DNA of 64,000 nt. It comes from Gammaproteobacteria bacterium. Lineage in GTDB: Bacteria > Pseudomonadota > Gammaproteobacteria > Eutrophobiales > Eutrophobiaceae. The translations under genes and the position numbers were made by a program. The notes under the pieces are model-generated. The model worked only from the letters and a program-made list of their open reading frames with translations, was not told the DNA's origin and did no database searches. Below are positions 5,613-62,394 of the stretch, one piece after another. Each line of letters opens with the position of its first letter. Within the stretch, counting starts at the first letter, position 1. The stretch is from positions 2,585,622 to 2,649,621 of the forward strand of contig OZ241853.1 in assembly GCA_965202685.1 (NCBI GenBank). The letters are read 5' to 3'.

Positions 5613-5617
5613 GGGGC

Positions 5618-6571
5618 ATGAGCTTCACCCAGTTCGAAGCCGCGCCGGCGCGCCTGCAACGGAGCGAGTTGGCGGTGCCGGGTTCCAATCCCAGCTTGTT
5701 TGAGAAGGCCGCCGCGTCCGCCGCGGATGTCATCTTTCTGGACTGCGAGGACGCGGTGACCCCCGCTGACAAGCCCCAGGCTCGCAAGAACATCATAGCG
5801 GCGCTGAACGAGGTGGATTGGCGGGGCAAAACTCTGTCGGCGCGCATCAACGGCCTAGACACCCATTACATGTACCGCGATGTGGTGGACATCGTGGAGC
5901 AGGCCGGGGCCAAGCTGGACACCGTGCTGATTCCCAAGGTGGGCGCGGCGGCGGATGTCTATATGGTGGATTGTCTGTTGACGCAAATCGAGGCCGCCAC
6001 CGGCCTGCAACGGCGCATCGGCATAGAGTGCCTGATAGAGACCGCCCTGGGGGGCGCCAATGTCATGGCCATCGCGCAGTCTTCGCCGCGCCTGGAGGCT
6101 CTGCATTTCGGGGTGGCGGACTACGCCGCCAGCATGCGCGCCCGCACCGTGAACATCGGCGGCCTGAACCCCGATTACCAGTGCGACGGCGCCTTGGGGG
6201 ACCCGTGGCACGCCGCCTTGGTGAATGTCGCCACCGCTTGTCGCGCCTTCGGGTTGCGCCCCATAGACGGCCCCTACGGGGATTTCAACGATCCCGAGGG
6301 CTACCGCGCCGCGGCCCGCCGCGCCGCCGCCCTGGGCTACGAGGGCAAGTGGGCGATTCACCCTAATCAGATTGACTTGGCCAACGAGATCATGTCGCCG
6401 CCAGAGGCCGAGGTGACCCGGGCCCAGCGCGTGTTGGAGGCCCTGCGGGAGGCGGCGGAGCAGGGCCGGGGCGCGGCGCAACTGGAGGGCAAGATGATCG
6501 ATGCCGCCTCCGAGCGCATGGCCCGAAACATCGCGCGCCAGGCGGAACTCATCGCCGCGAAATCCCACTGA
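5618..6571 (+). CDS. mcl: malyl-CoA lyase (HpcH/HpaI aldolase / CitE-like)
   Basis: 317 aa. Near-colinear match to the Methylobacterium MclA sequence as I remember it (MSFT…[11 protein letters not shown]…DVIFLD.EDAV…WAIHP.QIDLANE…). Confidence 0.8.
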
Positions 6572-6585
6572 GAGGGCCAGCTGTC

Positions 6586-7758
6586 ATGGACATTCACGAG
6601 TACCAAGCCAAAGAAATCCTTGCCGACTTCGGCGTGCCGATCCCCCGTGGCGGTTTGGCCTACAGCCCGGAGCAGGCGGTTTATCGCTCCCATGAGATCG
6701 GGGGGAACGCCTGGGTGGTCAAGGCGCAAATTCATTCCGGCGCCCGCGGCCGGGCCGGGGGCATCAGGTTCTGCCGGGACGATGAGGAGCTGTGGGCCGC
6801 CGCCGACGAGTTGTTGGGCCGGCGGCTGACCACCATTCAGACGGGCGACGCGGGCAAGATCATCCACCGGCTGTATGTGGAGGCCGCCAGCGACATCGAA
6901 AAAGAATACTATGTGGGCTTTGTGTTGGACCGGCAGCAGGAAAGGATCTCCGTCGTCGCCGCGGCGGAGGGAGGCATGGAGATCGAGGAGATCGCCGCGC
7001 AGAAGCCGGACTCAATCATCCGCGTGGCCGTCGAACCGGCGGTGGGCATGCAACCCTTCCAGGCCCGGGAGATCGCCTTCAAACTCGGCATAGACAAGAC
7101 TCTGATTAGCCAAGCCATTACCGCGTTATTGGGTTGTTACCGCGCCTTTCGCGACTTGGACGCCACCATGGTGGAGATCAACCCGCTGGCGGTGACTCAC
7201 GACGGCCACCTGTTGGCCTTGGACGCCAAGATGGGGTTTGACGACAACGCCTTGTTTCGGCGCCCGAACATTTCCGAGTTGCGGGACAAGTCCCAGGAAG
7301 ATCCCCGCGAGATGAAGGCGGCAGACCGGGGGCTCAGCTATGTGGGGTTGCAAGGCCAAATAGGTTGCATCATCAACGGCGCCGGCTTGGCCATGGCCAC
7401 CATGGACATGATCAAGCACGCCGGCGGCGAACCGGCCAATTTCCTGGACATAGGCGGCGGGGCCTCGCCGGAGCGGGTTGCCAAGGCCATCAACCTGGTG
7501 CTGGGAGACAAGAATGTCAAGGCGCTGTTGGTCAACATCTTCGCCGGCATCAACCGTTGCGACTGGGTCGCGAAAGGCATCGTGCAGGCCCTGAGCAAGC
7601 TAGAGCTGGGCCTGCCCTGCGTGGTCAGGCTGTCCGGCACCAATGTGGATGAGGGGCGGCAAATCCTGGAGGACAGCGGTTTGCCCATCATCATGGCCGC
7701 CACCCTGCAAGAGGCCGCGGAAAAGGCGGTGGCGGCCTGGCAAGCCAACGCATCCTGA
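6586..7758 (+). CDS. mtkA: malate--CoA ligase (malate thiokinase) beta subunit, ATP-grasp SucC-like
   Basis: 390 aa SucC-like protein ([20 protein letters not shown]…). Called mtkA rather than sucC because of its position inside the sga-mcl-…-hprA-ppc module. Confidence 0.7.
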
Positions 7759-7789
7759 CAACGACCGCATTCACCGAGGACAACGAACA

Positions 7790-8695
7790 ATGTCCATATT
7801 GATAGATGAAAACTCGAAAGCCATAGTGCAGGGCTTCACTGGGCAGATAGGGAGCTTCCACTCCTCGGACATGCTCAGCTACGGCACCCGGATAGTCGGC
7901 GGCGTCACCCCAGGCAAGGGCGGCGCCACCCACCTGGACCAGCCCGTCTTCGATACGGTCAAGGAGGCCGTGGAGCGCACCGGGGCTGACAGCAGCATCA
8001 TTTTCATTCCTCCCCCGTTTGCCGCCGACGGCATCATGGAGGCGGCGGACGCCGGCATCAAATTCTGCGTCTGCATCACCGACGGCGTCCCCGCCCACGA
8101 CATGATCCGCGTCAAGCGCTACATGCGCCGCTACAAGGAAAAAGACAAGATGATCCTGACGGGCCCCAACTGCGCCGGCACCATCAGCCCCGGCAAGGCC
8201 ATGTTGGGCATTATGCCGGGGCATATCTACCAGCCGGGCAGGGTGGGCGTCATCAGCCGTTCTGGCACCCTGGGCTACGAGGCGGCCTCGCAGATGAAGG
8301 CGGCGGGCCTGGGGGTGTCCACCAGCGTCGGCATCGGCGGCGACCCCATCAACGGCAGTTCTTTCAAGGACCATTTGGCGCGTTTTGAGGAGGATCCGGA
8401 CACCGATGCCGTGGTCATGATCGGCGAAATAGGCGGCCCCCAAGAGGCGGAAGCCGCGGAGTTCTACCGCGACAACATGAAAAAGCCGGTGGTGGGCTAC
8501 ATTGCCGGCCTCACCGCGCCCAAGGGCAAGCGCATGGGGCACGCCGGCGCCATTATTTCCGCCTTCGGCGAGTCCGCCGCGGAAAAGGTGGAGATCTTGC
8601 AAGAATGCGGCGTCGCCGTGGTGCCTAGTCCCTCGGAGTTCGCTCGCGCTGTCCAAGGCGTCTTAACCGCGACCGGAAGGGGGAAACCGCAATGA
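7790..8695 (+). CDS. mtkB: malate--CoA ligase alpha subunit (SucD-like CoA-binding subunit)
   Basis: ATG at 7790 after SD gagga. [25 protein letters not shown]… is typical of SucD/MtkB. The 7643 start in the ORF track overlaps mtkA and is unlikely. Confidence 0.7.
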
Positions 8696-9663
8696 GCAAA
8701 CCCAAAATCATAGTCAGCCGCAGGTGGCCTGAGGCCGTTGAAGCGAAGCTCAAAACCCTTTTTGATGTTCAGTTGAACGAGACGGACGCCCCCATGAGCG
8801 CCGGGCAGATGCGCGCGGCGTTGCAGACCGCCGACGCCTTCTGTCCCACCGTCTCCGACGATGTGAACGCGCAGATACTGGGGGTTGAAAACCTTAAGGC
8901 CGGGATCATCGGCAGCTACGGCGTCGGGTTCAATCACATCGACCTCGAGGCCGCCAAGGCTCGGGGGCTGGTGGTGACCAACACGCCTGATGTGCTAACC
9001 GATTGCACGGCGGACCTGGCTATGACCCTGTTGTTGACGGTGGCCCGGCGCGTCGGAGAAGGGGAGCGGCAGTTGCGCGGCAAGGCCTGGTCCGGCTGGC
9101 GCCCCACTCACATGATGGGCGCGAAAGTGACGGGCAAGACCCTGGGCCTGGTGGGCATGGGCCGGATCGCCCGGGCGATGGCCCGCCGGGCCTACCACGG
9201 TTTTGGCATGAAGATCCTCTTCACCGACCCCTATCCGCCGCCGGAGGACCTGGTGAAGTCCCTGCGGGCCGAGGCCCGGGACTCCATAGAGGAGGTGTTG
9301 CGAGAGGCGGACTTTGTTTCCCTGCATTGCCCGGGCGGCAAGGAGAACTACCATTTGCTGAACCGGGAGCGTCTGGCGCTGATGGGCCCTCAGGCCTTTC
9401 TCATCAACAGCGCGCGGGGCGACGTGGTTGATCAGGAGGCCCTGATGGAGGCCCTGCGAAACGGCGCCATCGCCGGCGCCGGCCTGGATGTGTACGAGGG
9501 GGAGCCAGCGGTGCCTGAGGCCTTGCTGTCCATGGAGAATGTCGTGTTGTTGCCGCACCTGGGGAGCGCCTCCAAGGAGACCCGGGTGGCCATGGGTTTG
9601 CGGGTGGTGGAGAATCTGGAGGCCTTTTTCGCCGGCCAGCCTCCCCGCGACCGCGTGGCGTGA
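8692..9663 (+). CDS. hprA: hydroxypyruvate reductase / glycerate dehydrogenase (D-isomer-specific 2-hydroxyacid dehydrogenase)
   Basis: 323 aa. NAD-binding motif GLVGMGRIARAMARRA and catalytic region …LPHLGSAS…. ATGA start/stop overlap with mtkB (8692-8695) and with ppc (9660-9663). Confidence 0.75.
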   Translation: MSKPKIIVSRRWPEAVEAKLKTLFDVQLNETDAPMSAGQMRAALQTADAFCPTVSDDVNAQILGVENLKAGIIGSYGVGFNHIDLEAAKARGLVVTNTPDVLTDCTADLAMTLLLTVARRVGEGERQLRGKAWSGWRPTHMMGAKVTGKTLGLVGMGRIARAMARRAYHGFGMKILFTDPYPPPEDLVKSLRAEARDSIEEVLREADFVSLHCPGGKENYHLLNRERLALMGPQAFLINSARGDVVDQEALMEALRNGAIAGAGLDVYEGEPAVPEALLSMENVVLLPHLGSASKETRVAMGLRVVENLEAFFAGQPPRDRVA

Positions 9664-12413
9664 CCCGGTTCGCTTTCAGTTTTCCTGAGGAGACCTCTGT
9701 TGCCGGGCTGGATTCGGCGGCGGCGAGTTACGCCGGCGGCCTCATTGAGCTGTTGTCCGCCCGGTTGCAGGAAGTCATCGCCCTGAGAAAACCGGAAATC
9801 CTGCCCATATTCGCCGGCAAAGCGCCATTGCCCCGGGACGACGCCCAGCTGTTGTTGGCGGCCCTGGAGGCCTGGGGGATCTGGTTTCAGTTGCTCAACA
9901 TCGCCGAGGAAAACACCGCCATGCGCCGCCGCCGCGTGGCCGAAAAGGCCCGGGGCCTGGCGCGAGTGCCGGGCTCCTTCGCCAATGTCCTGGGGCAGGC
10001 CCGCAAGATGGGGGCGTCGCCGAAATCGTTGCAGGCCCTGCTGGACAACTTGGCGGTCGCGCCCACTCTTACCGCTCACCCCACCGAGGCGAAACGGGTG
10101 ACGGTGTTGCAGATCCACCGGCGCATCTACCTGCTTCTGCATGAGCTGGAATCGACGCGCTGGACCCAGCGGGAGCGGGTCGAGCTGGAGGCGCGGCTGC
10201 GGGATGAAATTGACCTGCTATGGCTCACTGGCGAACTGCGCCTGGAAAAGCCCACGGTCGTCCAGGAGGTGAACTGGGGGCTGCATTTCTTCGAGCAGAC
10301 TCTGTATGAACGGGTGCCGGAGACCCTGGCCCGGCTGGACCAGGCCCTGGCGGAACACTATCCTGGCGAGAGCTTCAGGGTGCCGCCGTTTTTCCGCTTC
10401 GGGTCCTGGATAGGCGGCGACCGGGACGGCAATCCCTTTGTGAGCAACGCCGCGACCCGCAAGGCCCTGTTGCTGAACCGGCGCGCCATCCTGCGACATT
10501 ATCAGCGCCGCTTGAAGGAGCTAGGGGCGCGCCTCAGCGTCTCGGCGCACGCGGTGCGCCATCCCGCCGGATTTCTCAAACGCCTGCAGGCCCTGCTGGA
10601 GGCCAGCGGCAGGAGCGAGGGCATAGCGAAGCGCAACCCCGGGGAGATCTTCCGGCAATTCGCCGTTTGCTTGTTGGAGCAGATGGAGAACACGGAAAAA
10701 CGGGCCGCGCCCGGTCGGGCGGGGCGCGCCGCCTTCAGGTGCGACAACGCCGACTCCTTCATTCAGGACCTGAAAACCCTTGAGCAGGGCCTGGAAGAGG
10801 CCGGTTGCCGACACTTGGCGCAATCCCTGGCCCGGCCCCTGCGCCGCCAGGCGGAGGCCTTCCGGTTTTGCACGGCGCGCCTGGATCTCAGGGAGAACTC
10901 TTTGGTCATCCGCGCCACCCTGAGGGCCTGCTGGCGGCAACGCCAGCAGGGAGCAGACGCCGCGCCGCCAGCGCCGGAGTCCAAAGCCTGGTTGGCGTGG
11001 ATACAGGCGGAATTGTCCAACCCCTTGGAGGCGTTGCCAAGCCTGGTCTTCGAGGAGCGGCAATGCGCCGCGACCTTCAATTTATTCCGCCTGGTGGCGG
11101 AGGCGCGCAGGACCCTGGACCGGGAGGCTTTAGGCGGGTTCGTGCTGAGCATGACCCGGTCGGTGGCGGACATCCTGGGCGTGTATCTGTTAGCCAAGTA
11201 CGCCGGCGCCTTTACCGACAGCCAGGGGGTGGAAAGCTCCGCCCTGCCGGTGGTGCCGCTGTTTGAAACCATAGAGGACCTGCGGGCCGCGCCGGGGATC
11301 ATGCGGGCCCTGTTGAAGACGCCGGTGGCGCGCCGTAGCGTCAGGGAGCAGGGGGGGACGCAGGAGGTCATGCTCGGCTACTCCGATTCCAACAAAGATG
11401 GCGGTTTCCTCACCGCCAATTATGAATTGAGCCGCGCCCAGGCCAAACTGGCCAAGGTCGGCGTGGAGTGCAAGATTCCCATCGTGTTTTTTCATGGCAG
11501 AGGGGGGTCGGTCAGCCGCGGCGGCGGCCCCACCGGGCGCGCCATCGCCGCGCAACCCGCTGGTTCCGTCAACGGCAAGTTGCGGCTCACGGAGCAGGGA
11601 GAGGTGGTGTCCTCCCGCTACGCCAACCACGGCACCGCCCAGTACCACATGGAGCTGTTGGCCGCCAGCGTGATGGAACACACCTTGAAGTCCATGACGG
11701 AGGAGGCCTTGAAGCCGGTGCCGGAGTTTGATCAGGCTATGGACGCCCTGTCCAGTCTGGCTTACACGGCCTACCGGCAACTGCTGGAAGAGCCGGGCCT
11801 GGTGGATTATTACAACGCGGCCAGCCCGGTGGAGGAATTGGGCAAGTTGCGCATAGGCTCGCGTCCGGACCGGCGTTTCGGCGCGCGTTCCCTGGAGGAC
11901 TTGCGCGCCATCCCCTGGGTGTTCGCCTGGACGCAGAACCGGCATTACATCCCGGCCTGGTACGGCCTGGGTAGCGCCGTGGACGGATTTGTCAGGGTGC
12001 GGGGGAAGGAAGGGGAAAAGCTGTTGAAGACGATGCACCGGCGCTGGCGCCTGTTCCGGCTGGTGATTGACGAGGTGGAGAAGTCCCTGGCCTTTGTGGA
12101 TGTGGAGGTCATGCGCGCCTACGCCGACCTGGTGAAAGATGAAGAGACGCGGGAGCGGATCTACGGGAAAGTCATGCGGGAATACGAGCTGTCCAGGCAA
12201 AGCCTCCTCAAGATCACGGGGACAGCCGCCTTGCGCGGGCGTTTCGCCCGCTTCACCCGCAAGCTGGGCCGCCGCGACGCCATCCTCAAGCAGACGGGCC
12301 TGGCTCAGGTGGAATTGGTTAAACGGTTTCGCGATCAGGGCCGGCAGGAGGACCTGATCGCCTTGTTGCTTTCCATCAACTGCGCCAGCGCGGGCCTAGG
12401 CTGGACCGGCTGA
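9660..12413 (+). CDS. ppc: phosphoenolpyruvate carboxylase
   Basis: 917 aa. Hallmark PEPC motifs: VPLFETIEDL, GYSDSNKDGGFLTANYEL, FHGRGGSVSRGGGP, and a C-terminal …NTG-type ending. Confidence 0.9.
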   Translation: MTRFAFSFPEETSVAGLDSAAASYAGGLIELLSARLQEVIALRKPEILPIFAGKAPLPRDDAQLLLAALEAWGIWFQLLNIAEENTAMRRRRVAEKARGLARVPGSFANVLGQARKMGASPKSLQALLDNLAVAPTLTAHPTEAKRVTVLQIHRRIYLLLHELESTRWTQRERVELEARLRDEIDLLWLTGELRLEKPTVVQEVNWGLHFFEQTLYERVPETLARLDQALAEHYPGESFRVPPFFRFGSWIGGDRDGNPFVSNAATRKALLLNRRAILRHYQRRLKELGARLSVSAHAVRHPAGFLKRLQALLEASGRSEGIAKRNPGEIFRQFAVCLLEQMENTEKRAAPGRAGRAAFRCDNADSFIQDLKTLEQGLEEAGCRHLAQSLARPLRRQAEAFRFCTARLDLRENSLVIRATLRACWRQRQQGADAAPPAPESKAWLAWIQAELSNPLEALPSLVFEERQCAATFNLFRLVAEARRTLDREALGGFVLSMTRSVADILGVYLLAKYAGAFTDSQGVESSALPVVPLFETIEDLRAAPGIMRALLKTPVARRSVREQGGTQEVMLGYSDSNKDGGFLTANYELSRAQAKLAKVGVECKIPIVFFHGRGGSVSRGGGPTGRAIAAQPAGSVNGKLRLTEQGEVVSSRYANHGTAQYHMELLAASVMEHTLKSMTEEALKPVPEFDQAMDALSSLAYTAYRQLLEEPGLVDYYNAASPVEELGKLRIGSRPDRRFGARSLEDLRAIPWVFAWTQNRHYIPAWYGLGSAVDGFVRVRGKEGEKLLKTMHRRWRLFRLVIDEVEKSLAFVDVEVMRAYADLVKDEETRERIYGKVMREYELSRQSLLKITGTAALRGRFARFTRKLGRRDAILKQTGLAQVELVKRFRDQGRQEDLIALLLSINCASAGLGWTG

Positions 12414-12524
12414 GCCGGCTCTCCCGCAGGGCCGGTTGCGATTTTTCCGCCACTTTGGGATTGCCTGTTTTTCGGGGAGTGCCCCCAGGCCAAAAGCGAG
12501 GCAACGGGTTGGGCCGATTTCTCT

Positions 12525-12553
12525 TTGACCGGTTCTGGCTGAAATGGTATATT
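12525..12553 (+). promoter_or_regulatory. candidate promoter of the island-1 R-M operon (TTGACC-17 nt-TATATT)
   Basis: -35 TTGACC (12525-12530), 17-nt spacer, -10 TATATT (12548-12553), immediately upstream of the AT-rich island. Confidence 0.45.
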
Positions 12554-12650
12554 TGCAACCGCTTTGCCCCGTCCGTCTGTTGGCGCGGGGTTGGCGTGGC
12601 AAGTTGTTGATGCTTTTTTCATCTTGATTTTTTTGACCAGACCCGGGGCA

Positions 12651-13820
12651 ATGGGAAAGTTGCAAGAGTGCAAGGAAATGACTGAAATAGAAACGCTGGA
12701 GACAGTGGATTGGGACTTTGCGGATGCTTTGACGGGCACCTCGACAAACACAATACATCCCTATCCAGCTAAATTCATCCCGCAGATTCCAAATCGTTTC
12801 ATAAGGCGGTTTTCAAATGAGGGGGAAACGGTGTATGAACCGTTTTTGGGCAGTGGCACGACTGCTGTAGAGGCCAACATACTCGGAAGAAATTCCATTG
12901 GCAACGACGTGAATGAGCTGGCGGTGCTTATTTCCAAAGTCAAAACAACTCCTATTGCGAACAGAAAACTCGCCTCTCTTGACGGCTTGCTGAATAAAAT
13001 CTACAACCGGATAGATCAGTTGCATTCCAGCAGGGAAGATAAAATTGCAAGACCCAACATCGTCAACCTTGATCGATGGTTTGAAGATTTTGTGATCAAA
13101 GAGCTGGCGCTCACCAAAGAAGAAATTATGAAACTTGGCGACCAGGATCTGATTGATTTTTGCCTTGTGGCGTTTTCGGGGATCATCATTGCCGTTTCGA
13201 GACAAGACAGCGACACCCGATATGTGCGAGTTCCCAAGAACATCAAGCCATTGGATACTTTCGACAAGTTTTCAAAACAGTTGCGCAAATTGAGAAAAAT
13301 TATGCGGGAGTCGAGAGAGCTGATTAGCAAGGGCAAATCTGTCTTTAAAGTCGCCGACACGAGAATGGAAGATGTTTTTGCTGAAGACTCGGCTGATTTG
13401 GCTGTTACATCCCCTCCTTACCCTAATGCTTATGATTACCACCTGTATCATAAATACCGTCTCTTTTGGTTGGGAATGGATCCAGCGCGTTTGCGGCAAA
13501 GTGAAATTGGGGCGCATGCTGACTACTCAAAGAAAAACGGGGCGGATGAATTTGACTTTTTGAAGGACATGAAAAAGTGTTTTTTGAACACGAGCAAAAT
13601 CCTCAAGCCTGGCGCTTGTTTTGCTCTTGTCATTGGCGATTCAATTTTGAAAGGCAGGAACATTCGGAATAACGAAGTTCTGAAGCAAGCCGCTCAGATG
13701 ACGCCTTTCAGTTATGTTGCGGAGTTCACAAGGAATCTGAAGTTAAACAAGAAATCATTTAACCCGAAGATCGGCAATATAAAGACGGAAAAGATTGTGG
13801 TTTTTGAGAATCGGAAATGA
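12651..13820 (+). CDS. DNA amino-methyltransferase (SPPY motif; probable N4-cytosine or N6-adenine), family paralog A
   Basis: Motif order is HPYPAKFIPQ (motif-X-like), then SNEGETVYEPFLGSGTTAVEA (motif I), about 190 aa, then VTSPPYPNAYDY (motif IV). The start could be ATG 12651 or ATG 12678; the ORF-track start at 12564 is unlikely. Confidence 0.7.
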   Translation: MGKLQECKEMTEIETLETVDWDFADALTGTSTNTIHPYPAKFIPQIPNRFIRRFSNEGETVYEPFLGSGTTAVEANILGRNSIGNDVNELAVLISKVKTTPIANRKLASLDGLLNKIYNRIDQLHSSREDKIARPNIVNLDRWFEDFVIKELALTKEEIMKLGDQDLIDFCLVAFSGIIIAVSRQDSDTRYVRVPKNIKPLDTFDKFSKQLRKLRKIMRESRELISKGKSVFKVADTRMEDVFAEDSADLAVTSPPYPNAYDYHLYHKYRLFWLGMDPARLRQSEIGAHADYSKKNGADEFDFLKDMKKCFLNTSKILKPGACFALVIGDSILKGRNIRNNEVLKQAAQMTPFSYVAEFTRNLKLNKKSFNPKIGNIKTEKIVVFENRK

Positions 13821-13823
13821 GCC

Positions 13824-15395
13824 ATGTATAGGTACCTGGCCAATTTTTCAAGATACAAGCTTCGGGATTACGAGAAGCAACTTGCGATAGGGGAATTCGA
13901 GAATCAATTTCCTTCCGTGAAGGAAAAATCAGTCACCGACCAGGGAATATCATTTACGACAAGCCGGCGTCTTAACGCCTCCAAACTTGAAAAGTTGGCT
14001 TTTTACAGCGAGATTCGTTTTCAAAATATGAGATCGGAACAATCAAGCATCCTGACAGACCAGGCGATTATCGAGAGTTTCCAAAAGTCTTCTCCTGATT
14101 TGTTTGAGTCCATTCATCCTGCTAAATCCCGGGAAATTCGCTATTTGACGCATTCGTTTCACGAGTATAAAGGCAGGTTTTATCCGCAACTTGCGAAAGC
14201 GTTTATGAATTACGCCGGTCTCAAAAGAGGCGACACTATTTTAGATCCGTTCTGCGGTAGCGGAACGACATTAGTTGAAAGCTTGCTGTTTGGCGCAAAC
14301 GCCATCGGCATTGACATAAACCCAATAGCTTATCTTTTGGCCAAGGCAAAGGTGCAAAGCCTTTTATTGAAAGAAAAAGAGCTGGGGGTTGTTCGAGAAA
14401 CTTTTGCAGACTCCAAGTTCGGTTCAGACTGGAAAAAGATTCGATTAGAGAGTTGCGACAGCGCTTTGGATGTGGAATACTTGAAAAACTGGTTTCCTGA
14501 AAAAAACCTGAAAAAAATCATTTTCATTCAACAGACCATAGGGCGTTTGCCGAATGAAACAACCCGACTCTTTGCAAAAGTGATTCTTAGCAACCTGTTG
14601 CGAAAGTTTTCCTATCAAGAGCCAAATCAGCTGAGAATGAGAAGGCGGCTGGATGCGCCGCCGCAGAATCTGATTGAAACATTTAAGAAAAATCTTGTTG
14701 ATCAGATTGAAAACCTGGAAAAATTTCGTTTGTTAAATCGTTTTGATCTTACTTCCCAAGTTGAGAATCATTTAGGTGATGTCAGAACATTGATGAAAAG
14801 CGCCGGGCTGAGAAGTCGCTCGGTTGATGCCGTCATTACTTCGCCGCCTTATGCGACCGCGTTGCCTTATGTCGATACTGACAGGCTTTCATTGTTTGTT
14901 TTCGGCTTCACCAGGAAGGGCAATTTCCGGGAATTGGAACGAACCTTAATTGGCAATCGCGAGATTGCCAAGTCAGAGAGGGTGCAACTGGATAAAGAAC
15001 TTGAGAGCAACTTCGCCCAGTCTGTCTTGCCTAAAAAAATCACTCGGCTACTGAGAAAAATTTACCTGCTCAATAAAAATTCAGATGTCGGCTTCAGGCG
15101 CAAGAACACGGCGGCATTGCTCTACAAGTACTTTTCGGACATGCAACTGAGCCTCAACCAGGTTTCCAAGATCCTGAAGCAAAACAAACTGGCTTTTTTT
15201 GTCGTGGGCAACAACAGAACCACAGCAGGCGGCGAAAATGTCCACATTCCGACGGGCGATTTTATCAGCTTGATTGCGCAAGAAAATGGTTTAAGGCTTG
15301 TTGAGAAAATCAACATGACCGTTCAACAGCCTTATATGATTCATTCTAAAAATTCCATTAGTAAGGAATCCATTTTGGTCTTGCAGAGGAAATGA
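13824..15395 (+). CDS. DNA amino-methyltransferase (SPPY motif), family paralog B
   Basis: HEYKGRFYPQL …ILDPFCGSGTTLVESLLFGANAIGIDIN… VITSPPYATALPY. Same architecture as the upstream gene. Start lies 4 bp after the stop of paralog A. Confidence 0.7.
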   Translation: MYRYLANFSRYKLRDYEKQLAIGEFENQFPSVKEKSVTDQGISFTTSRRLNASKLEKLAFYSEIRFQNMRSEQSSILTDQAIIESFQKSSPDLFESIHPAKSREIRYLTHSFHEYKGRFYPQLAKAFMNYAGLKRGDTILDPFCGSGTTLVESLLFGANAIGIDINPIAYLLAKAKVQSLLLKEKELGVVRETFADSKFGSDWKKIRLESCDSALDVEYLKNWFPEKNLKKIIFIQQTIGRLPNETTRLFAKVILSNLLRKFSYQEPNQLRMRRRLDAPPQNLIETFKKNLVDQIENLEKFRLLNRFDLTSQVENHLGDVRTLMKSAGLRSRSVDAVITSPPYATALPYVDTDRLSLFVFGFTRKGNFRELERTLIGNREIAKSERVQLDKELESNFAQSVLPKKITRLLRKIYLLNKNSDVGFRRKNTAALLYKYFSDMQLSLNQVSKILKQNKLAFFVVGNNRTTAGGENVHIPTGDFISLIAQENGLRLVEKINMTVQQPYMIHSKNSISKESILVLQRK

Positions 15396-15396
15396 C

Positions 15397-16488
15397 ATGA
15401 AACTCACACTTTTGACGCATGAAAATCCGGTAGGCGAAGAAATCGCTAAGGCTCTGAAAAACGGAAGGTATTCCAATTTCAAAGCGGCTGTCGCTTATGT
15501 GCGAAATTCGGGCCTAAGCAGGATCCACAGCGAACTGGCTGATTTTGCCGGGAACGGAGGCAAAGCATCCATAATCGCAGGCATAGATCAAGGCAATACT
15601 TCATATCAGGCTTTAGTCAATCTGAAAACTTTTGCCAAGGACAACTTGTTTATCCACCACGATAGAAATTTTGATATTACATTCCATCCCAAGATTTACC
15701 TGTTTGGCAACAGCCAGGTTGAAAAGGTGATACTGGGATCGTCCAATTTTACCGCTGGTGGTTTTTATTTGAATTACGAAGCAAATATCAGCGTTAAGCT
15801 TGGAAGTTCGGAAAAAGCAAAACGCTTTCGCCGGCAGATTTCGGATTATTGGAGCGATTTGCTGAATGACAAGAATACGAAAAGGTGCGCTCCGGCATTG
15901 CTCAACAAACTTTTGGAAAACGGTTCCATAGCCGATGAGCGCGCGCAAAAACCGTTCAAGGAAATCATTGAGAAAATGTCAACCGGTTCCCCTTTCAAAG
16001 CCAGGGAATTAAGGACAGCGCCGCCTGCTGTGGAGTTGCGAACGGAAGTTCCAGCGTTAAGAGGGAAATTTGCAATGACGCTTTCGAGCTTTGATGTAAG
16101 CGAGAGGAGCCTGGACCCTGTTCTGCTGATCCCTATTGCCGCGTTGAGGACGAGGCCGGGATTCTGGAATTTCCCTGCCTTTTACACTTATTCGGAAACA
16201 GGCTATCCTCAGCTGTATGCGGTTGCAGAAGTCCGGATGGATGGCAAGGCGCTGAAAGATCAACATATCCGGATGTATTACTACGAGAAAAAAAGCGAGT
16301 TCCGTTTGAAGTGCGAAGCCATTAAGCGGGCCGGTGATGAAGGGGACATCATTGTAATTAGAAAGTATCCCACCAGGCCCTTGGAGTTTGAAATTGAGCT
16401 TTTAAGGCGGAATTCCATAGAACATGAAGAGATTAGACCTCTTCTTGCTCAGAGAGCAAGTTCGCGGAAATTTTTCGCTTATTTGTGA
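15397..16488 (+). CDS. phospholipase-D-family nuclease with a single HKD motif; candidate BfiI/NgoFVII-type restriction endonuclease
   Basis: Single HxK…GSxN motif (HPKIYLFGNSQVEKVILGSSNFT) in the N-terminal half. C-terminal half of about 170 aa is plausibly a DNA-recognition domain. 363 aa, close to BfiI (358 aa) and similar to Nuc. Starts 2 bp after the stop of methyltransferase B. Confidence 0.6.
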   Translation: MKLTLLTHENPVGEEIAKALKNGRYSNFKAAVAYVRNSGLSRIHSELADFAGNGGKASIIAGIDQGNTSYQALVNLKTFAKDNLFIHHDRNFDITFHPKIYLFGNSQVEKVILGSSNFTAGGFYLNYEANISVKLGSSEKAKRFRRQISDYWSDLLNDKNTKRCAPALLNKLLENGSIADERAQKPFKEIIEKMSTGSPFKARELRTAPPAVELRTEVPALRGKFAMTLSSFDVSERSLDPVLLIPIAALRTRPGFWNFPAFYTYSETGYPQLYAVAEVRMDGKALKDQHIRMYYYEKKSEFRLKCEAIKRAGDEGDIIVIRKYPTRPLEFEIELLRRNSIEHEEIRPLLAQRASSRKFFAYL

Positions 16489-16497
16489 CAGTGGGTT

Positions 16498-17799
16498 ATG
16501 CAGACGATTGAAGCGTTGATTGAACCTGGCCGCGCGCACCGGGACCTCTATGTAAGCAAGGAGATTTTCGCCTTGGAGATGGAGCGGATCTGGGGACAGG
16601 CTTGGCTTTACGCGGGCCATGAGAGCCAGGTCAAAGCGCCGGGTGAGTACATCACGACTACCCTGGGGTTGACCCCTGTGGTCATGGTTCGGGATGTCGA
16701 TAGCGGCGGCGTGGCGGTGTTGTTGAACCGTTGCGGGCACCGGGGAGCCATGGTCTGCCAGGCCCGGGCCGGCGTGGCGGCCCGGGGCCTGTTCAGGTGC
16801 CCCTATCACGGCTGGACCTACAAGACGGATGGCTCTTTGCGGGCCCAGCCCAGCCCCGCCGGCTATGAGGGGGTGGGGTTCGACAAGAGCGACCCGTCCT
16901 TCGGCATGACTCCAGTCCCCAGGGCGCAAAGCTACCGGGGGTTTGTCTTCGCCTCCCTGGTCGCGACCGGGCCTGACCTGGAGACCTTTCTCGGGGAGGC
17001 CCGCGCCACCATAGACAACATGATTGACCGCTCGCCTGAGGGCGAGGTGGAAGTCACCGGCAAGACCTGCCATCGTTTCCGCCATCGCGCCAACTGGAAG
17101 CTGTTCACCGAAAACCTGCACGACGCCATGCATCCCATGGTGGCCCATGCCGGCACCACCACGGCGGTGCGGCGCTATCTGGAACAGTTGCCGCCAGGGG
17201 CCGAGCCGCCGCCGGAAGCGGAGGTGATCGCCCCCTTCGGCGGTTCCTACGATTTTTTCGACGACATGGGTTTCGTGGGGCTGCCCCGGGGCCATGGCTA
17301 CATGGGCGGGGAGACGAGCATCTTCAGCCACTACGAGGTGTACGCCGATTACCTTGAAAAAATGGAACGGGCCTACGGCAAGACCCGCGCCCAGGCCATC
17401 CTCGCGTTTAACCGGCACAACACCCTGGTCTATCCGTCCTGCGCGGTGCGGGACAATATCCAGTCCATCCGCGTCGTCGTGCCGGTGGCGGTGGACGAGA
17501 CCATCATCGAGTCTTGGACTTTCAGGCTCAAGGGCGCGCCCGCCGCCATGTTGGAGCGCACCTTGCGCTACTCCCGCCTGATCAATTCCCCCGCCTCCAT
17601 GGTCGGGGCGGACGATCTGAATTGCTATGAGCGCGTGCAACAGAGCGCCGCCACCGGCGCCGTGACCTGGATAGACCTGCGCCGGCACCTGGGGCGGGAA
17701 GTTCGGGACGGGGACCGGGTCACCGCCACAGGCACCAGCGACCTGGCCCTGCGCAACCAGCACGCCGCCTGGCTTGAGTACATGACCGCCGGCGCGTAA
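16498..17799 (+). CDS. Rieske [2Fe-2S] ring-hydroxylating dioxygenase, alpha (large) subunit
   Basis: Rieske motif CGHRG…(17 aa)…CPYHGW, then a catalytic-domain region with conserved His/Asp. 433 aa. Confidence 0.8.
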   Translation: MQTIEALIEPGRAHRDLYVSKEIFALEMERIWGQAWLYAGHESQVKAPGEYITTTLGLTPVVMVRDVDSGGVAVLLNRCGHRGAMVCQARAGVAARGLFRCPYHGWTYKTDGSLRAQPSPAGYEGVGFDKSDPSFGMTPVPRAQSYRGFVFASLVATGPDLETFLGEARATIDNMIDRSPEGEVEVTGKTCHRFRHRANWKLFTENLHDAMHPMVAHAGTTTAVRRYLEQLPPGAEPPPEAEVIAPFGGSYDFFDDMGFVGLPRGHGYMGGETSIFSHYEVYADYLEKMERAYGKTRAQAILAFNRHNTLVYPSCAVRDNIQSIRVVVPVAVDETIIESWTFRLKGAPAAMLERTLRYSRLINSPASMVGADDLNCYERVQQSAATGAVTWIDLRRHLGREVRDGDRVTATGTSDLALRNQHAAWLEYMTAGA

Positions 17800-27204: not shown

Positions 27205-27999
27205 TTAGCCACTCTTCTTTCTCTCAATAACGCTTCTTATCCTCTTTTTAGCGAAGGTTGCGTACTTCTTGTCTTTCTCAATGCCTAACCACTTTCTGTT
27301 TAATGTTTCGGCAACGACGGCGGTTGTTCCGCTTCCTAAAAATGGATCAAGAACAATGTCGCCTTCGTTTGAACTTGTCAAAATAATTCTTTTGAGTATT
27401 TCTTCTGGTTTTTGCGTGGGGTGCAATGCGCGTCCACTTTTGTTGCGCAGTCTCTCTTTTCCTTGAACAAGTGGCAATTCCCAAAGATCGCGCATTTGTT
27501 TTGGACTCCCATCCTTCTTTCTATGGGGATTTATTTCTTTTGTTTTTTCATAATTGAAAATCCAGCCGCTTCCTTTTACCGCCCAAACAACAAACTCAGT
27601 TGAGTGTGTATAAACTCGTTTTGTCATATTAGGCATTGCGTTTGTTTTATACCAAGTGATAACATTGTTAATTTTGAAACTGAACTGTTTTAATGTTACC
27701 AGCACTTCGCCGATGTTGTGATAGCTGCATGAAATGTAAATTGCTCCACCATTTTTCAACACCCTGAAGCAAGAGCCGATCCATTCTTTTGTAAATTCCA
27801 TGTATTCTGAGGAGGTCATTTTATCCCAGGCCTCGTCTATCATGTGCCAGTCGCCTCCAGTTTTATTTCCCTCCCATTTTAAGTGATTTCCGGACAGATT
27901 GTAGGGCGGATCAGCAAAAATCAAAGCAACAGTTTCTTCATCGAACTGTTTGTTCAGTATTGAAATGCAGTCACCATTGTAAATAACATTTGTTTTCAT
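27205..27999 (-). CDS. beta-class DNA N6-adenine (or N4-cytosine) methyltransferase
   Basis: Motif order is DPPY (ALIFADPPYNL), then HPTQKP, then DPFLGSGTTAV, the beta-class permutation. Start taken at MKTNVIYNGDC (27999). Confidence 0.8.
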   Translation of the reverse strand: MKTNVIYNGDCISILNKQFDEETVALIFADPPYNLSGNHLKWEGNKTGGDWHMIDEAWDKMTSSEYMEFTKEWIGSCFRVLKNGGAIYISCSYHNIGEVLVTLKQFSFKINNVITWYKTNAMPNMTKRVYTHSTEFVVWAVKGSGWIFNYEKTKEINPHRKKDGSPKQMRDLWELPLVQGKERLRNKSGRALHPTQKPEEILKRIILTSSNEGDIVLDPFLGSGTTAVVAETLNRKWLGIEKDKKYATFAKKRIRSVIERKKSG

Positions 28000-28007
28000 G
28001 TTTATAC

Positions 28008-29825
28008 TCAGGAAAGGATGCTTTCCCGCCATGAAGAAATAGTTTCCGGAATGCTTTGCAGCCATTCAATGGAGTTGTTGAAAGAATTGGTGGCATTCAA
28101 TATTTTGTCGTACAAAAGCGAGAGTTGCGTGTGTCTTAAGAACCGCAGTTCTGCTTTCATCTGAAGAAGAGTTTCCAAAATCAATATGAAATGGCTAATT
28201 GATAACGGGATGATTTTCTGAGGACTCCCCTCAAATTCGTATTTTATCGCCGCCCAAAAAGTGTTTACGGTATCCCTGTGCAGTGATGGGGCAATGAATA
28301 GACAATATGATGGCTTGCTGGGATGCTTTTTTTCAAAATCTCTTAAATGCCTCATCACTGGTTGTCCTTCGTTGTACCACTGCTCGCGGTTTCTGAGCAT
28401 TGTAACTTCGCAAATTGCATTGAAGCTATCATAAAAGCACTCAATATCTGGAGTGTTTGCAGGAGCGGTGAAAGTTGGTTCATTATCATCGCCGACAGGA
28501 TAACTGGGTTGTATTCTAAGCGCATCGTTAAGCGCTTGCAAACTCAGTGCAGACAATTTTTCAAGCAATATAGAACGGTCATCATGCTCAAAGATAGTTT
28601 TAAGCTTATGAATGCAGTTTTCAATTTGCTCTTTTGTTTGGGAACTCTCGTAATCCAGATCATTTTGTAGCGACCTCCTGTATTCTCGCAATTCAGCGAT
28701 ATAGATTCTTAACTCGTCATTTTGCATTTTTCGGTAGTTTTCCAGGGCAATGTTCTCTTTCCTCAAAGAAGCTTCATGTTCGCGCACTTCTTGAACAAGC
28801 CGTTCTATAATTTCAATGTGCTTTTCTGAGGTTTCCCAAGGAAGATAAGGCTGGGAAATGTCTGACACATATTCAAGATAAGCTTTTTTTGAGACAAAGG
28901 ATTTAGCTTTTGCACTGTCATAAGCTAATAGAGCATTGATTTCAATTGACCTGCTTGGTTCTAAATCAATATAAAAGCCACCGCCACGGATGCGTATATA
29001 TCGAGTCAAGCGAAAATAACGAATTGCGTTATCGCCGTAGTCTTGCAAATTGTTCAGGAGGCTGCTTATCTTGTTTTTGTCATTAGATTCTAAAAACCCA
29101 ATGGCAAATTGCCATTTGTAATTTTCAAAGCATTCCCTTCGTTCCTTCTGTGGCTTGCTTATTAGTTCTTCTCTTAAAGCGATAATTCTCTCCGCATAAT
29201 CATTTATGTTTTTATGATGAATCAAAGTGGGAACGAAAAGGGAAAATTCCTGTTTGCTAATGCCTTTAGGTTTGTTGCCGCGAGAAATGTCTTTTTGATT
29301 CACCTTATTGATCAGATGAAGTGCGCCAATGAAGGGCTTAATATCGTAATTTCCGTCTTCAGGATAATCACGGCTATCGGGGTTTGGTATTTGCCATTTC
29401 AAGAAACTTCTGAAAAACACTTCTCCAATATCAAAGTCATCTTTCATAAAAAGCTTCCCTAGGTCAGTGATGAATATCCTATTGTTTTTGATAGCGACGA
29501 GCCCTATTTTTTTGAGGGGGTTTATTGACTGTCTTCCGCGCATTGGCGGATCTTCATAATTTTTGATGTTGAAAATCTCTTCCGCTTGAGCAAAAGATAT
29601 TTCTCTTGATAGATCATCAATCAAGCTAACTGATTCTCGGGGAAGCCCATTATAGAACTGGGGACTTCCATATCCATATTTTCTATTTTGGATAAGTAAA
29701 GTTTGAAAAGCTTTTTGGCTTTCTGAATTCCATTCCGAATTTTCGAGTTGACGAAGGATTATCAAAAAATCCCTCAGCCTTTCAGGATTTCGCAACGTTG
29801 TGGTGATTGACCAAGGTTTTTTCAT
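28008..29825 (-). CDS. candidate type IIS restriction (or nicking) endonuclease, AlwI/N.BstNBI/PleI/MlyI-like family
   Basis: 605 aa. Recalled segments of N.BstNBI line up: FLKWQIPNP…YPE…IKPF…LHLINKV, IRYFRLTRYIR.RG, and YCLFIAPSL…IIPLSISHF. N-terminal W…RNPERL…L…E..W pattern. Flanked by two methyltransferases. Identification is from memory, not from alignment. Confidence 0.5.
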   Translation of the reverse strand: MKKPWSITTTLRNPERLRDFLIILRQLENSEWNSESQKAFQTLLIQNRKYGYGSPQFYNGLPRESVSLIDDLSREISFAQAEEIFNIKNYEDPPMRGRQSINPLKKIGLVAIKNNRIFITDLGKLFMKDDFDIGEVFFRSFLKWQIPNPDSRDYPEDGNYDIKPFIGALHLINKVNQKDISRGNKPKGISKQEFSLFVPTLIHHKNINDYAERIIALREELISKPQKERRECFENYKWQFAIGFLESNDKNKISSLLNNLQDYGDNAIRYFRLTRYIRIRGGGFYIDLEPSRSIEINALLAYDSAKAKSFVSKKAYLEYVSDISQPYLPWETSEKHIEIIERLVQEVREHEASLRKENIALENYRKMQNDELRIYIAELREYRRSLQNDLDYESSQTKEQIENCIHKLKTIFEHDDRSILLEKLSALSLQALNDALRIQPSYPVGDDNEPTFTAPANTPDIECFYDSFNAICEVTMLRNREQWYNEGQPVMRHLRDFEKKHPSKPSYCLFIAPSLHRDTVNTFWAAIKYEFEGSPQKIIPLSISHFILILETLLQMKAELRFLRHTQLSLLYDKILNATNSFNNSIEWLQSIPETISSWRESILS

Positions 29826-30976
29826 GGCCGTTCAACATGGCAATAGAAAATCCGTTCCGCATTGCTCTCGCTGGCGCTTTTTCCTGTTGTAAAGGCCTTG
29901 TAATTTTTTTCAAATATCTCAACGTTGCCTCTGCCACTCAGAATTCGCACGATTTCGTTATCGCTTATTCTTGCGTTTGAGCGCCCGTCTTTTGAATTGC
30001 CTGTGTTGTTGTAAGAAAGTAAAATATGCCTGCATTGCGCGTTTCCAATCAAGTCTGAAAGCGCGCGTTTTGCGCTTTTGAGACAATAATTGCTTTTTAT
30101 ATGCGAGCGGTTCATTTTTTTGCCTACGCCGACTACTTCGGGTTTTTTCCATTCTGCGACATTTTCCAGAAGATGATACGCATCTGAGTACTGGCGCGAG
30201 TTGTAGGGCGGGTCAATGTATAGAACATCACAAGAGATTCTTTTGATTAGCGCGTTTGCGTCTTCTTTGTGGATTTCATTGTTTTCGTTATTCGCGTAGT
30301 CAATAGCGGGAATTAAAAGCCGGACAGGTTGGATCGTGTCTAATTTCCTCCGAAAAGCATCGTAATGGCCAACGGTATTGGCAACCTTGTCCGTTGCGTA
30401 AAGCAAGGAACAAATCAGGATGTTCTTTTCATCTTCGCCATTTGCAATTTCGTTAATCTCCTCGCGCATTGCCCCGATCTTTTTTGCATTCGCTTCTGTG
30501 AAATAGGTCCCGCCAAAGTGTTCTGAGAAATAATTTTCTTGACTGCTCTCCAAAGCATTGAGATAGCCGATTTTTTGAATTAAGCTTTTTTGCAGGTCGC
30601 GACGAACCCCTAAAAAGGCTTTCAGGCAGGCGTAATTCGCAAAAAGCAAATCATTGGAGATGATTTTAATGGCTTGGTTGTTAAACCTTTCTCCGACAAC
30701 GCCAGTTCCAGCAAAGATGTCGCAAAAGGAATTTATGGGGCCGCACTTTTCTGACACCACATCCTCGATGAAACCTAGCAATTTGCGCTTGTTGCCCAGG
30801 TACCGTCTGTTATGGAGGCGAAAGCGCCCACTACTTAGGCATTCTTGTGGCGGGAAGCGATGCCCGTTGATTCTCTGCGCGCTGATTTCAGGCCCGGATT
30901 CTTCTCCGTATAAATCGAGCTGAGTCGTATGCAGGTTGTTTTCCACGCGGTCAGAGTTTTGGTTCTGTTCTGTCAT
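29822..30976 (-). CDS. D12-class (Dam-like, alpha) DNA N6-adenine methyltransferase
   Basis: RYLGNKRKLL (the Dam WAGGK-type motif), FCDIFAGTGVVG (motif I), VLYIDPPYN (motif IV), and HILLSYNN (the Dam SNSD-type motif). Stop overlaps the endonuclease start. Confidence 0.75.
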   Translation of the reverse strand: MTEQNQNSDRVENNLHTTQLDLYGEESGPEISAQRINGHRFPPQECLSSGRFRLHNRRYLGNKRKLLGFIEDVVSEKCGPINSFCDIFAGTGVVGERFNNQAIKIISNDLLFANYACLKAFLGVRRDLQKSLIQKIGYLNALESSQENYFSEHFGGTYFTEANAKKIGAMREEINEIANGEDEKNILICSLLYATDKVANTVGHYDAFRRKLDTIQPVRLLIPAIDYANNENNEIHKEDANALIKRISCDVLYIDPPYNSRQYSDAYHLLENVAEWKKPEVVGVGKKMNRSHIKSNYCLKSAKRALSDLIGNAQCRHILLSYNNTGNSKDGRSNARISDNEIVRILSGRGNVEIFEKNYKAFTTGKSASESNAERIFYCHVERP

Positions 30977-31990: not shown

Positions 31991-33181
<1,191 letters not shown>

Positions 33182-61577: not shown

Positions 61578-61647
61578 GGCCCTGTTGGTGCCTAAGCGCG
61601 TCTTGGAGACAGCGAGGAGCAATTAAAGCAGTTGGATTGCGTTTGGT

Positions 61648-62394
61648 ATGAAAAAGATAAACCGACAAGAAGTGCTAAAGTATGTTGAAGAAAACATCGC
61701 AACTTTTCATCAGCAACGCATTGATAGTCTTAATAACTTGAAGTTATTGGAAGTCATCGCAAGGAAGAATCCCTATCTTCTCAAAGCGAAATACTTGCTG
61801 ACTACTGGCGAGATTGTAAGCGGTTTAACAGATGCGCATATTTCTTCAAATGAAGAGACCATTTTTAACAACTGGCTGAAAGGTTTAGCTATTTTTGTCA
61901 ATAGTAAAGTTTATGGCGGGTATAAGTCGGGCATTACAGGCATTGATCTCGAATTTAACAAAGATGGAATAAGATACATTGTAACGATTAAATCAGGGCC
62001 CAATTGGGGCAACGCTTCACAAATAGCTAAAATGATTGAGGATTTTAAAACAGCTAAGCTAGCACTGAGAACAAGCAATTCAAAGCTAAACATAACTGCT
62101 ATCAATGGTTGCTGTTACGGGAGAAACAATAAAACGGACAAAGGGGAGTATTACAAGTATTGTGGTCAACGCTTTTGGGAATTCATATCCGGCGACAGCG
62201 AGTTATTTACTGAAATTATTGACCCACTTGGATATAAAGCCAAAGAAAAGAATGATGTCTTCATGGCATCGTATTCGCAGATGATAAATCGGTTCATCAA
62301 AGCGTTTGCAGACACATATTGCAAAGACAATGGAGAAATTGACTGGAAAAAACTGGTCATATTCAACTCTGCAATAGAAAGGCCCCCTAAGTAG
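61648..62394 (+). CDS. hypothetical protein; candidate type II restriction endonuclease partner of the adjacent methyltransferase
   Basis: 248 aa, AT-rich, convergent with the methyltransferase. Possible acidic/Lys cluster GIDLEFNKDG…VTIKSG, but no catalytic motif confidently recognised. Confidence 0.3.
   Translation: MKKINRQEVLKYVEENIATFHQQRIDSLNNLKLLEVIARKNPYLLKAKYLLTTGEIVSGLTDAHISSNEETIFNNWLKGLAIFVNSKVYGGYKSGITGIDLEFNKDGIRYIVTIKSGPNWGNASQIAKMIEDFKTAKLALRTSNSKLNITAINGCCYGRNNKTDKGEYYKYCGQRFWEFISGDSELFTEIIDPLGYKAKEKNDVFMASYSQMINRFIKAFADTYCKDNGEIDWKKLVIFNSAIERPPK

Follow-up and report, generated by a model that had tools for sequence, protein, structure and literature searches.

A candidate BfiI-type restriction-modification cassette of foreign composition in a gammaproteobacterial genome

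Within the window, by which we mean the whole 64-kb stretch of gammaproteobacterial DNA analyzed here, three tightly packed co-directional genes, flanked by ppc and a gene for a Rieske dioxygenase, encode two amino-methyltransferases (M1 and M2) and a nuclease (R). Taken together, the computational evidence makes it quite probable that this ∼4-kb cassette (∼12651–16488) is a self-contained, horizontally acquired restriction-modification (R-M) system of the BfiI type (type IIS-like). The initial annotation had proposed a BfiI-like R-M system, and that proposal is upheld by structural and two-domain profile matches of R to BfiI, an invariant catalytic tetrad, SPPY motifs in both methyltransferases (MTases), and a neighborhood without an ATPase partner. 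The cassette is an uncharacterized member of a known and genomically common kind of defense system and does not represent a new mechanistic category.

Genomic setting and composition

The description of three tightly coupled genes in a low-GC block held up well. Intergenic gaps in the open reading frame (ORF) listing are 3 nt between M1 and M2 and 1 nt between M2 and R, and GC content in 500-nt windows is 0.42–0.49 across positions 12750–16500 vs. 0.62–0.68 on both sides, in a genome of ∼65% GC. The M1, M2, and R genes have GC contents of 0.44, 0.43, and 0.46, respectively, with GC3 of ∼0.50; the flanking ppc and dioxygenase genes are of native composition (GC 0.65, GC3 0.84). A terminator-like hairpin just past the ppc stop codon sets a putative upstream boundary to the transcription unit of the cassette, and a promoter-like site lies upstream of M1 (Table 1).

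Searches of the flanks gave no convincing direct or inverted repeats bracketing the cassette, and neither the ORF list nor the gene neighborhood contained an integrase or transposase near it. An empty site, with ppc adjoining the dioxygenase gene, was sought in relatives and not found, so the exact insertion boundaries are not definable. The closest dioxygenase homologs outside the lineage (L088 and L089; ∼75% identity) are not syntenic, and a homolog at 98% (L090) again has R upstream. The host genome also carries a serine-cycle gene cluster.

Table 1. Coordinates (window numbering) of the cassette genes, domains, motifs, and flanking signals.
Feature	Coordinates	Strand	Details
Terminator-like hairpin	12413..12437	+	10-pair stem, 6 G-C pairs, then T-run
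Promoter-like site (putative)	12525..12553	+	TTGACC-17-TATATT with extended TG; 10/12 consensus matches
Longer M1 ORF	12564..13820	+	418 aa from TTG
M1, amino-methyltransferase	12651..13820	+	389 aa; PF01555 1.3e-18; PADLOC MTase_II PDLC03364 2.8e-65, full length
M1 motif I, FLGSG	12843-12857
M1 motif IV, SPPY	13410-13421
M2, amino-methyltransferase	13824..15395	+	523 aa; PF01555 6.5e-16; PADLOC MTase_II PDLC03377 5.1e-69, full length
M2 motif I, FCGSG	14250-14264
M2 motif IV, SPPY	14841-14852
R, nuclease	15397..16488	+	363 aa
R N-terminal PLD nuclease domain	15397..15870	+	Residues 1-158; catalytic residues H97, K99, N117, E128
Codons H97 and K99	15685-15693
Codon N117	15745-15747
Codon E128	15778-15780
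R interdomain linker	15871..16062	+	Residues 159-222; lower model confidence, pLDDT 65-82 over residues 181-220
Codon E181	15937-15939
R C-terminal B3-like domain	16063..16488	+	∼140 aa

The nuclease and the methyltransferases

As described in the initial annotation, the nuclease has exactly one HxK...GSxN motif: the only H.K in the whole of R is HPK at residues 97–99, followed by GSSN at 114–117. The catalytic histidine and lysine are thus both present, and the tetrad H97/K99/N117/E128 is invariant among 71 relatives, with spacing (+2/+18/+11) identical to that of H105/K107/N125/E136 in BfiI. Comparison with profile models, which had been suggested as a check, gave a divided answer. R scored above the gathering threshold of Pfam PLDc_2 (PF13091; 36.1 bits, cut-off 27, E = 7e-9) but just under that of RE_NgoFVII (PF09565; 22.2 bits, cut-off 23.8), a model for which precomputed matches exist among some R homologs. 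No PADLOC REase_II model matched R significantly, its top PADLOC match was a type IV enzyme model that covers the PLD domain only, and no Pfam model detected its C-terminal domain.

Structural comparison, in turn, agreed with the C-terminal DNA-binding barrel predicted at the outset. A Foldseek search with the single-chain AF2 model of R (pLDDT 90.3) placed full-length BfiI at rank 1 (E = 2.5e-17), with BfiI-C at 1.2e-7, and BfiI was also the best PDB sequence found with the R-family profile (E = 4.7e-14), with separate matches to the PLD and C-terminal domains. BfiI/BmrI (type IIS, ACTGGG 5/4; PDB 2C1L, 3ZI5) is close to R in size, at 358 aa for BfiI, and sequence identity between BfiI and R is just 14–18%. 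In EcoRII-N, UbaLAI-B3, and plant B3 proteins, the corresponding domain serves for recognition or as an effector and is joined to PD-(D/E)XK nucleases or transcription-factor domains and not to a PLD nuclease.

In the C-terminal domain, the C-arm arginine clamp R292 of R corresponds to R272 of BfiI, E301–R303 to D282–R284, and the C-terminal K358 to K340; these equivalences, and the TGG prediction that follows, are provisional because the domain E-value of the BfiI alignment is modest here (0.015). The (D/E)xR motif (E301-x-R303 in R) is invariant in 71 relatives, and in BfiI and EcoRII this element reads TGG and hydrogen-bonds a cytosine N4 (BfiI residue roles from PMC3973309 and PMC4267654). 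By analogy, the recognition site of R plausibly contains TGG/CCA, where N4-methylation would block it. The BfiI base contacts E276, N279, and N280, in contrast, align with Y295, K298, and K299 of R, and R has a C-arm loop shorter by one residue; its full specificity is therefore probably not that of BfiI. E181 in the linker is invariant in alignment A1 (present in 59 of 71 loci) and aligns with BfiI E186. Unlike the acidic linker of BfiI (PMC4267654), that of R is net basic (13 basic vs. 8 acidic residues), and BfiI-style autoinhibition may therefore differ.

The two methyltransferases had been called paralogous, and the comparison bears this out: both belong to Pfam PF01555 (N6_N4_Mtase) and share 26% identity over 258 aa (E = 8e-20). 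The initial annotation had envisaged a distinct methyltransferase family, for which there is no clear sign: M1 and M2 are ordinary SPPY amino-methyltransferases with full-length matches to PADLOC type II MTase models. Motif I precedes motif IV in M1, and SPPY occurs in both MTases at 72 of 72 related loci. SPPY goes with m4C formation only as a rule of thumb. The motif suggests N4-cytosine methylation, as with BfiI, and M1 and M2 are probably N4-cytosine MTases, one per strand; the MTases of BfiI itself act on cytosine N4 (PMC3973309). Solved MTase structures align to M1 and M2 solely near the SAM-binding motif and are uninformative on specificity. The start of M1 needs revision, in that the ORF from TTG is indeed open but the ATG at 12651 is the more likely start, because M1 is called at 389 aa in three related contigs and because, compared with L001, an 8-bp indel at 12613 would throw the TTG extension out of frame.

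Conservation of the trio and competing readings

The M1, M2, and R trio is kept in ∼70 loci/genomes from many phyla, co-directional as in the window in 23 loci and convergent in 46, with the MTases sometimes fused. At E ≤ 1e-30 the R family comprises 763 representative clusters (defined at 50% identity). The statement that PLD-family restriction enzymes are few therefore applies to the characterized ones, but not to genomes, where they are common; a 2014 review terms PLD restriction endonucleases "far from rare" (PMC4081073).

Purifying selection acts on all three genes, with dN/dS of 0.15 for M1, 0.15–0.16 for M2, and 0.16–0.24 for R, and in two related lineages that have the cassette at the same site its dS is equal to the dS of the housekeeping genes on either side. 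These values bear on the possibility that the cassette is a decaying remnant, in which the MTases still methylate and R has lost its endonuclease activity in the host. Loss of R does happen in the family, since only its N-terminal part is detectable beside both MTases at L026, L066, L070, and L075, and in the more distant comparison the dN/dS of R (0.24) exceeds those of M1 and M2. However, R keeps its full length both here and in three related contigs, its catalytic and DNA-clamp residues are all intact, and its dN/dS is comparable to the ppc and dioxygenase values, all of which make decay improbable in this host.

A somewhat smaller probability attaches to R being an NgoAVII/CglI-type subunit that cuts only with ATP and a separate DEAD-helicase-like ATPase, the partner being encoded elsewhere. 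[quoted passage not shown] Those systems, however, pair a single MTase (PMC4267653) with a DEAD-family N-protein encoded alongside, whereas our cassette encodes two amino-MTases and has, judged by gene neighborhood only, no ATPase or helicase gene in or beside it, its neighbors being ppc and the Rieske dioxygenase gene with their native composition. No helicase or ATPase gene is conserved beside the trio across ∼70 related loci. BfiI likewise has no ATPase partner, and it outscores NgoAVII in every comparison with R.

It is less probable again, and quite unlikely, that R is a modification-dependent (type IV/END-like) PLD nuclease directed against foreign modified DNA, with the MTases as functionally unrelated neighbors. 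Among PADLOC and PDB sequence matches, the best for R is the type IV PLD enzyme SauUSI, and PLD nucleases whose C-terminal sensor domains vary serve as type IV-like defenses (bioRxiv 10.1101/2025.03.31.646159). Yet R resembles SauUSI in the PLD domain only and, at 363 aa, lacks the helicase/ATPase fusion of SauUSI-like architectures. SauUSI and END enzymes have helicase or modification-sensor C-terminal regions, come without cognate MTases, and target modified DNA, whereas R ends in a BfiI/EcoRII-type sequence-reading B3 barrel and is tied to the same two MTases over ∼70 loci, in two gene orders and even where the MTases are fused. Such linkage is what marks a cognate R-M trio, and the 1-nt gap between M2 and R points to co-expression.

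Scarcely credible, finally, is the view that R, instead of being a restriction enzyme, acts as a non-specific Nuc/NucT-like nuclease or as a lipid phospholipase D, as the public annotation "phospholipase D family protein" and structural matches of Nuc and NucT to the N-terminal domain of R might suggest, given that Nuc (Salmonella) and NucT (Helicobacter) are non-specific, single-domain proteins of ∼155 aa without a DNA-recognition domain or methyltransferases, that R has an extra 140-aa B3-like DNA-recognition domain and strict linkage to two DNA MTases, and that it carries a single HKD motif vs. two in lipid PLDs.

Predicted mechanism and wider significance

As a BfiI-type R-M system, the cassette would work with M1 and M2 each methylating one strand of an asymmetric site, probably at cytosine N4, and an unmethylated site would be read by the C-terminal B3-like pseudobarrel of R. 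Two N-terminal PLD domains would dimerize, as in the BfiI-type homodimer, which binds two sites, to form one HxK active site, to which each subunit would contribute H97, K99, N117, and E128, and both strands would be cut sequentially, without Mg2+ and at a fixed offset, via a covalent phospho-histidine intermediate, as PLD chemistry leads one to expect (PMC4081073). The M1-M2-R order, with its 3-nt and 1-nt gaps, may couple translation of R to the earlier translation of the MTases. We infer dimerization, metal independence, cleavage offset, the methylated base, and the recognition sequence, as well as the type IIS cleavage and new specificity that the initial annotation had also anticipated.

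We give roughly even odds to a broader reading in which the cassette belongs to a large, wholly uncharacterized sister family of BfiI (at least 763 clusters, two layouts, >10 phyla) that has kept the TGG-reading (D/E)xR element and changed the other base contacts, and whose co-directional clade shares one new site. A single shared recognition sequence is suggested for that clade because the putative N-arm, LSxFDVSxxSxDP, is nearly invariant in it, R included. If this reading is true, the family would form a reservoir of type IIS specificities that are new and metal-independent. To our knowledge, well-studied restriction enzymes that cleave DNA with no metal ion are limited to BfiI and BmrI. 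The BfiI/BmrI cleavage domain has been used in chimeric nucleases (PMC2094064), and a distant, widespread family with the BfiI build and other DNA-contacting residues may offer new specificities and natural variants of PLD–B3 coupling.

The concern that R could be misfiled as a generic phospholipase proved justified, with its relatives publicly named "phospholipase D family protein" or "HKD family nuclease." R is not recognized as a restriction enzyme by Pfam, NCBIfam, or PADLOC, so that at loci of this kind orphan methyltransferases are listed next to a "phospholipase D," an annotation gap by which the R-M content of environmental genomes is understated. A second R-M cassette within the same window contains a relative of these MTases.

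Layout, composition and surroundings of the cassette

M1, M2 and R, the genes for two DNA methyltransferases and a phospholipase D (PLD)-type nuclease, are co-directional and separated by only 3 nt (M1/M2) and 1 nt (M2/R). GC content is 0.42–0.49 across this stretch vs. 0.62–0.68 outside, the drop coinciding exactly with the three genes (GC 0.43–0.46, GC3 about 0.50), in line with the tightly packed, low-GC block recognized in the initial annotation; the cassette is of foreign origin. The M1 ORF was likewise recovered, although its start is most likely the ATG at 12651 rather than the upstream TTG, because M1 of related contigs is annotated with 389 aa and an 8-bp indel at 12613 relative to L001, a closely related metagenomic contig in which GGATAGGT is present, would break the frame of the TTG extension. 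This indel falls in the ppc–M1 intergenic region, the least conserved segment in the L001 comparison (93.6% vs. about 97%). Neither flanking repeats nor mobility genes were apparent around the cassette, and a search for a relative with an empty site found none.

Features of the three low-GC islands and their surroundings (window positions)
Feature	Position	Strand	Remarks
ppc	9660..12413		upstream flank; GC 0.65, GC3 0.84
Terminator-like hairpin of ppc	12413-12437		upstream of M1
Sigma-70-like promoter site	12525-12553		good match; upstream of M1
M1	12651..13820	+	ORF, 389 aa from ATG 12651; upstream TTG alternative 12564
M2	13824..15395	+	ORF
R	15397..16488	+	ORF
Rieske dioxygenase alpha gene	16498..17799		downstream flank; GC 0.65, GC3 0.84
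N6_N4_Mtase	27205..28065	minus	2.5e-59
AlwI-family type IIS endonuclease	28008..29825	minus	RE_AlwI 2.8e-81
Dam-like D12 methyltransferase	29822..30976	minus	1.3e-33
tuf	31991..33181
ORF, 328 aa	60665..61651		third island, upstream of EcoO109I-family endonuclease; no Pfam match
EcoO109I-family endonuclease	61648..62394		third island; 7.7e-86
SPPY amino-methyltransferase, 526 aa	62408..63988		third island, convergent; 25–35% identical to M2

The R stop codon and the start ATG of the native-GC dioxygenase gene lie only 9 nt apart (16489–16497), a spacing shared by the related loci L001, L090, and L091; intergenic regions of less close dioxygenase homologs are about 110 nt. Transcription from the cassette may therefore now run on into the dioxygenase operon. 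Upstream (window ~5400–12413; L001 1–7010) lies a serine-cycle-type cluster, which by Pfam contains an Aminotran_5 gene, an HpcH/malyl-CoA-lyase-like gene, two succinyl/malate-CoA ligase-like subunits, a 2-hydroxyacid dehydrogenase, and PEP carboxylase, and is consistent with a methylotrophic host.

Conservation and distribution of the trio

Close copies occupy the same site between ppc and the dioxygenase gene in metagenomic contigs L001 and L002 (97% nucleotide identity) and in L091 (R 90% identical at the amino acid level). Because cassette dS in the L001 comparison (0.088–0.107) matches that of the flanks (0.066–0.088), and dN/dS is 0.15–0.24 across M1, M2, and R, the cassette was acquired before these lineages split and is kept by selection. 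It could in principle be a decayed remnant, as R is detectable only in its N-terminal part in loci L026, L066, L070, and L075, where both methyltransferases are present (fragmentary in L075) and pseudogenization of R is suggested; the R gene of the window, by contrast, is intact and evolves under selection.

The M1-M2-R order recurs, with R 33–68% identical, in Nitrospirae, Bacteroidota, Planctomycetota (Kuenenia), Cloacimonadota, KSB1, Alpha- and Gammaproteobacteria, and others. In a larger clade comprising most relatives (among L027–L087, and e.g., L005, L092), R is 24–33% identical, about 400 aa long, and convergent with M2-M1. The two methyltransferases form a single 978-aa fusion protein in Rubritalea halochordaticola (L005) and are encoded by separate, overlapping genes on Rhizobium anhuiense plasmid pRA_T24_3. 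Mean GC was below that of the flanks by 0.10 in the 23 co-directional and by 0.06 in the 46 convergent cassettes scored, and no conserved helicase or ATPase gene was found beside either set. Two adjacent R-like matches in L052 (6001–7131 and 7326–8213) are possibly a tandem duplication.

The initial annotation considered known PLD restriction enzymes to be few. This holds for characterized examples of the already known BfiI type, BfiI and BmrI, but a 2014 review called such enzymes “far from rare,” with >40 putative members in REBASE (PMC4081073), and our exhaustive profile search returned 763 representative clusters at E ≤ 1e-30, almost all of them full length; the family is abundant. Relatives of R have no more specific public names than “phospholipase D family protein” or “HKD family nuclease,” the misannotation that had been anticipated; the cassette belongs to a large unexplored family and lays bare an annotation gap.

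Homology of R to BfiI

R contains a single HxK (HPK, residues 97–99) followed by GSSN at 114–117, as first annotated. In Pfam, PLDc_2 matched (7e-9) and RE_NgoFVII fell just below threshold; the C-terminal 140 residues had no Pfam match, and R had none in NCBIfam. Single-sequence search of the PDB returned SauUSI (7e-6), BfiI (0.043), and Nuc (0.39). With a profile of 37 R homologs, BfiI became the best PDB match (E 4.7e-14), with separate matches in the PLD (2.1e-8) and C-terminal (0.015) domains. A confident AlphaFold2 model built from the same alignment (mean pLDDT 90.3) retrieved full-length BfiI first in a Foldseek comparison with the PDB (E 2.5e-17), followed by SauUSI, R.NgoAVII, and the isolated BfiI C-terminal recognition domain; further B3-like barrels matched were EcoRII-N (9.3), UbaLAI-B3 (9.2), FUS3 (9.2), and NgoAVII-B3 (7.0), so the B3-like or EcoRII-N-like C-terminal barrel that had been suspected is predicted by the model. 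Both sequence and fold therefore reveal the homology to BfiI.

The BfiI active site consists of H105, K107, N125, and E136 (PMC4267654), and H97, K99, N117, and E128 of R have identical spacing and align with it in both single-sequence and profile comparisons, confirming the catalytic His/Lys. These residues, with G114 and S115, are invariant among the 37 homologs. The profile alignment also pairs BfiI R272, D282-F283-R284, and K340 with R292, E301-F302-R303, and K358 of R. In BfiI, the C-arm makes its essential contact to the “clamp” phosphate through R272, with K340 as the second clamp contact, and BfiI and EcoRII-N read TGG with the (D/E)xR motif, whose carboxylate hydrogen-bonds cytosine N4 (PMC3973309). 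Across 71 full-length relatives from the fetched loci, the H/K/G/S/N/E residues and the (D/E)xR arginine never vary, the acidic position of that motif is E in 28 loci and D in the other 43, and position 358 is K or R wherever aligned.

With Y295, K298, and K299 aligned to the other base-contacting BfiI residues E276, N279, and N280, and with a C-arm loop shorter by one residue, we expect, from this modest-scoring alignment, a recognition site that differs from ACTGGG of BfiI but may still contain TGG. The linker (residues 159–222) is net basic (8 acidic, 13 basic residues) whereas that of BfiI is acidic and a proposed DNA mimic (PMC4267654), so nuclease regulation may also differ.

An ATP-dependent enzyme like NgoAVII or CglI is unlikely, as the cassette has no N-protein gene and encodes two amino-methyltransferases instead of a single methyltransferase, and BfiI matches R better in every comparison. 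The top PADLOC match is a type IV model, reached through the PLD domain, and no PADLOC type II endonuclease model matched significantly; yet a type IV or END-like modification-dependent nuclease is also unlikely, given that similarity to SauUSI is confined to the PLD domain and methyltransferase linkage is kept in two gene layouts. Both the extra DNA-recognition domain and this linkage speak against a non-specific Nuc-like nuclease or lipid PLD. At 14–18% identity to BfiI, R makes the cassette a new, distant, uncharacterized member of the BfiI type.

Methyltransferases, proposed mechanism and other islands

M1 and M2 are PF01555 methyltransferases and, as annotated, paralogous (26% identity over 258 aa, E 8e-20). 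Motif I (FLGSG in M1, FCGSG in M2) precedes motif IV (SPPY), from which a long insert separates it, and this order is a permuted amino-methyltransferase layout. Both enzymes carry SPPY in each of the 72 scorable related loci; the motif is typical of N4-cytosine methyltransferases, though not absolutely. This hint parallels the BfiI methyltransferases, which act on cytosine N4 positions read by BfiI-C (PMC3973309). Full-length matches to PADLOC type II methyltransferase models (2.8e-65, 5.1e-69) and a 25–35% identical relative within another cassette of the window place both in an ordinary type II family; the “distinct methyltransferase family” is therefore without support as something special.

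We propose that the cassette is a BfiI-type restriction-modification (R-M) system. M1 and M2 would each protect a different strand of an asymmetric site, probably through m4C, and R would bind the unmethylated site via its B3-like domain. Dimerization through the PLD domains would create one HxK active site, which would cut one strand after the other at a fixed offset, independently of metal ions and through a phospho-histidine intermediate, as in the chemistry of BfiI (reviewed in PMC4081073). Its practical value would likely be a new metal-independent specificity.

A second low-GC island (27205–30976, minus strand, GC 0.39–0.45), about 1 kb from tuf, is an AlwI-type R-M cassette with two methyltransferases, and a third (60665–63988, GC 0.46–0.52) holds an EcoO109I-family endonuclease. 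Together with M1-M2-R, this makes three distinct small R-M cassettes inserted among housekeeping genes in the 64-kb stretch.
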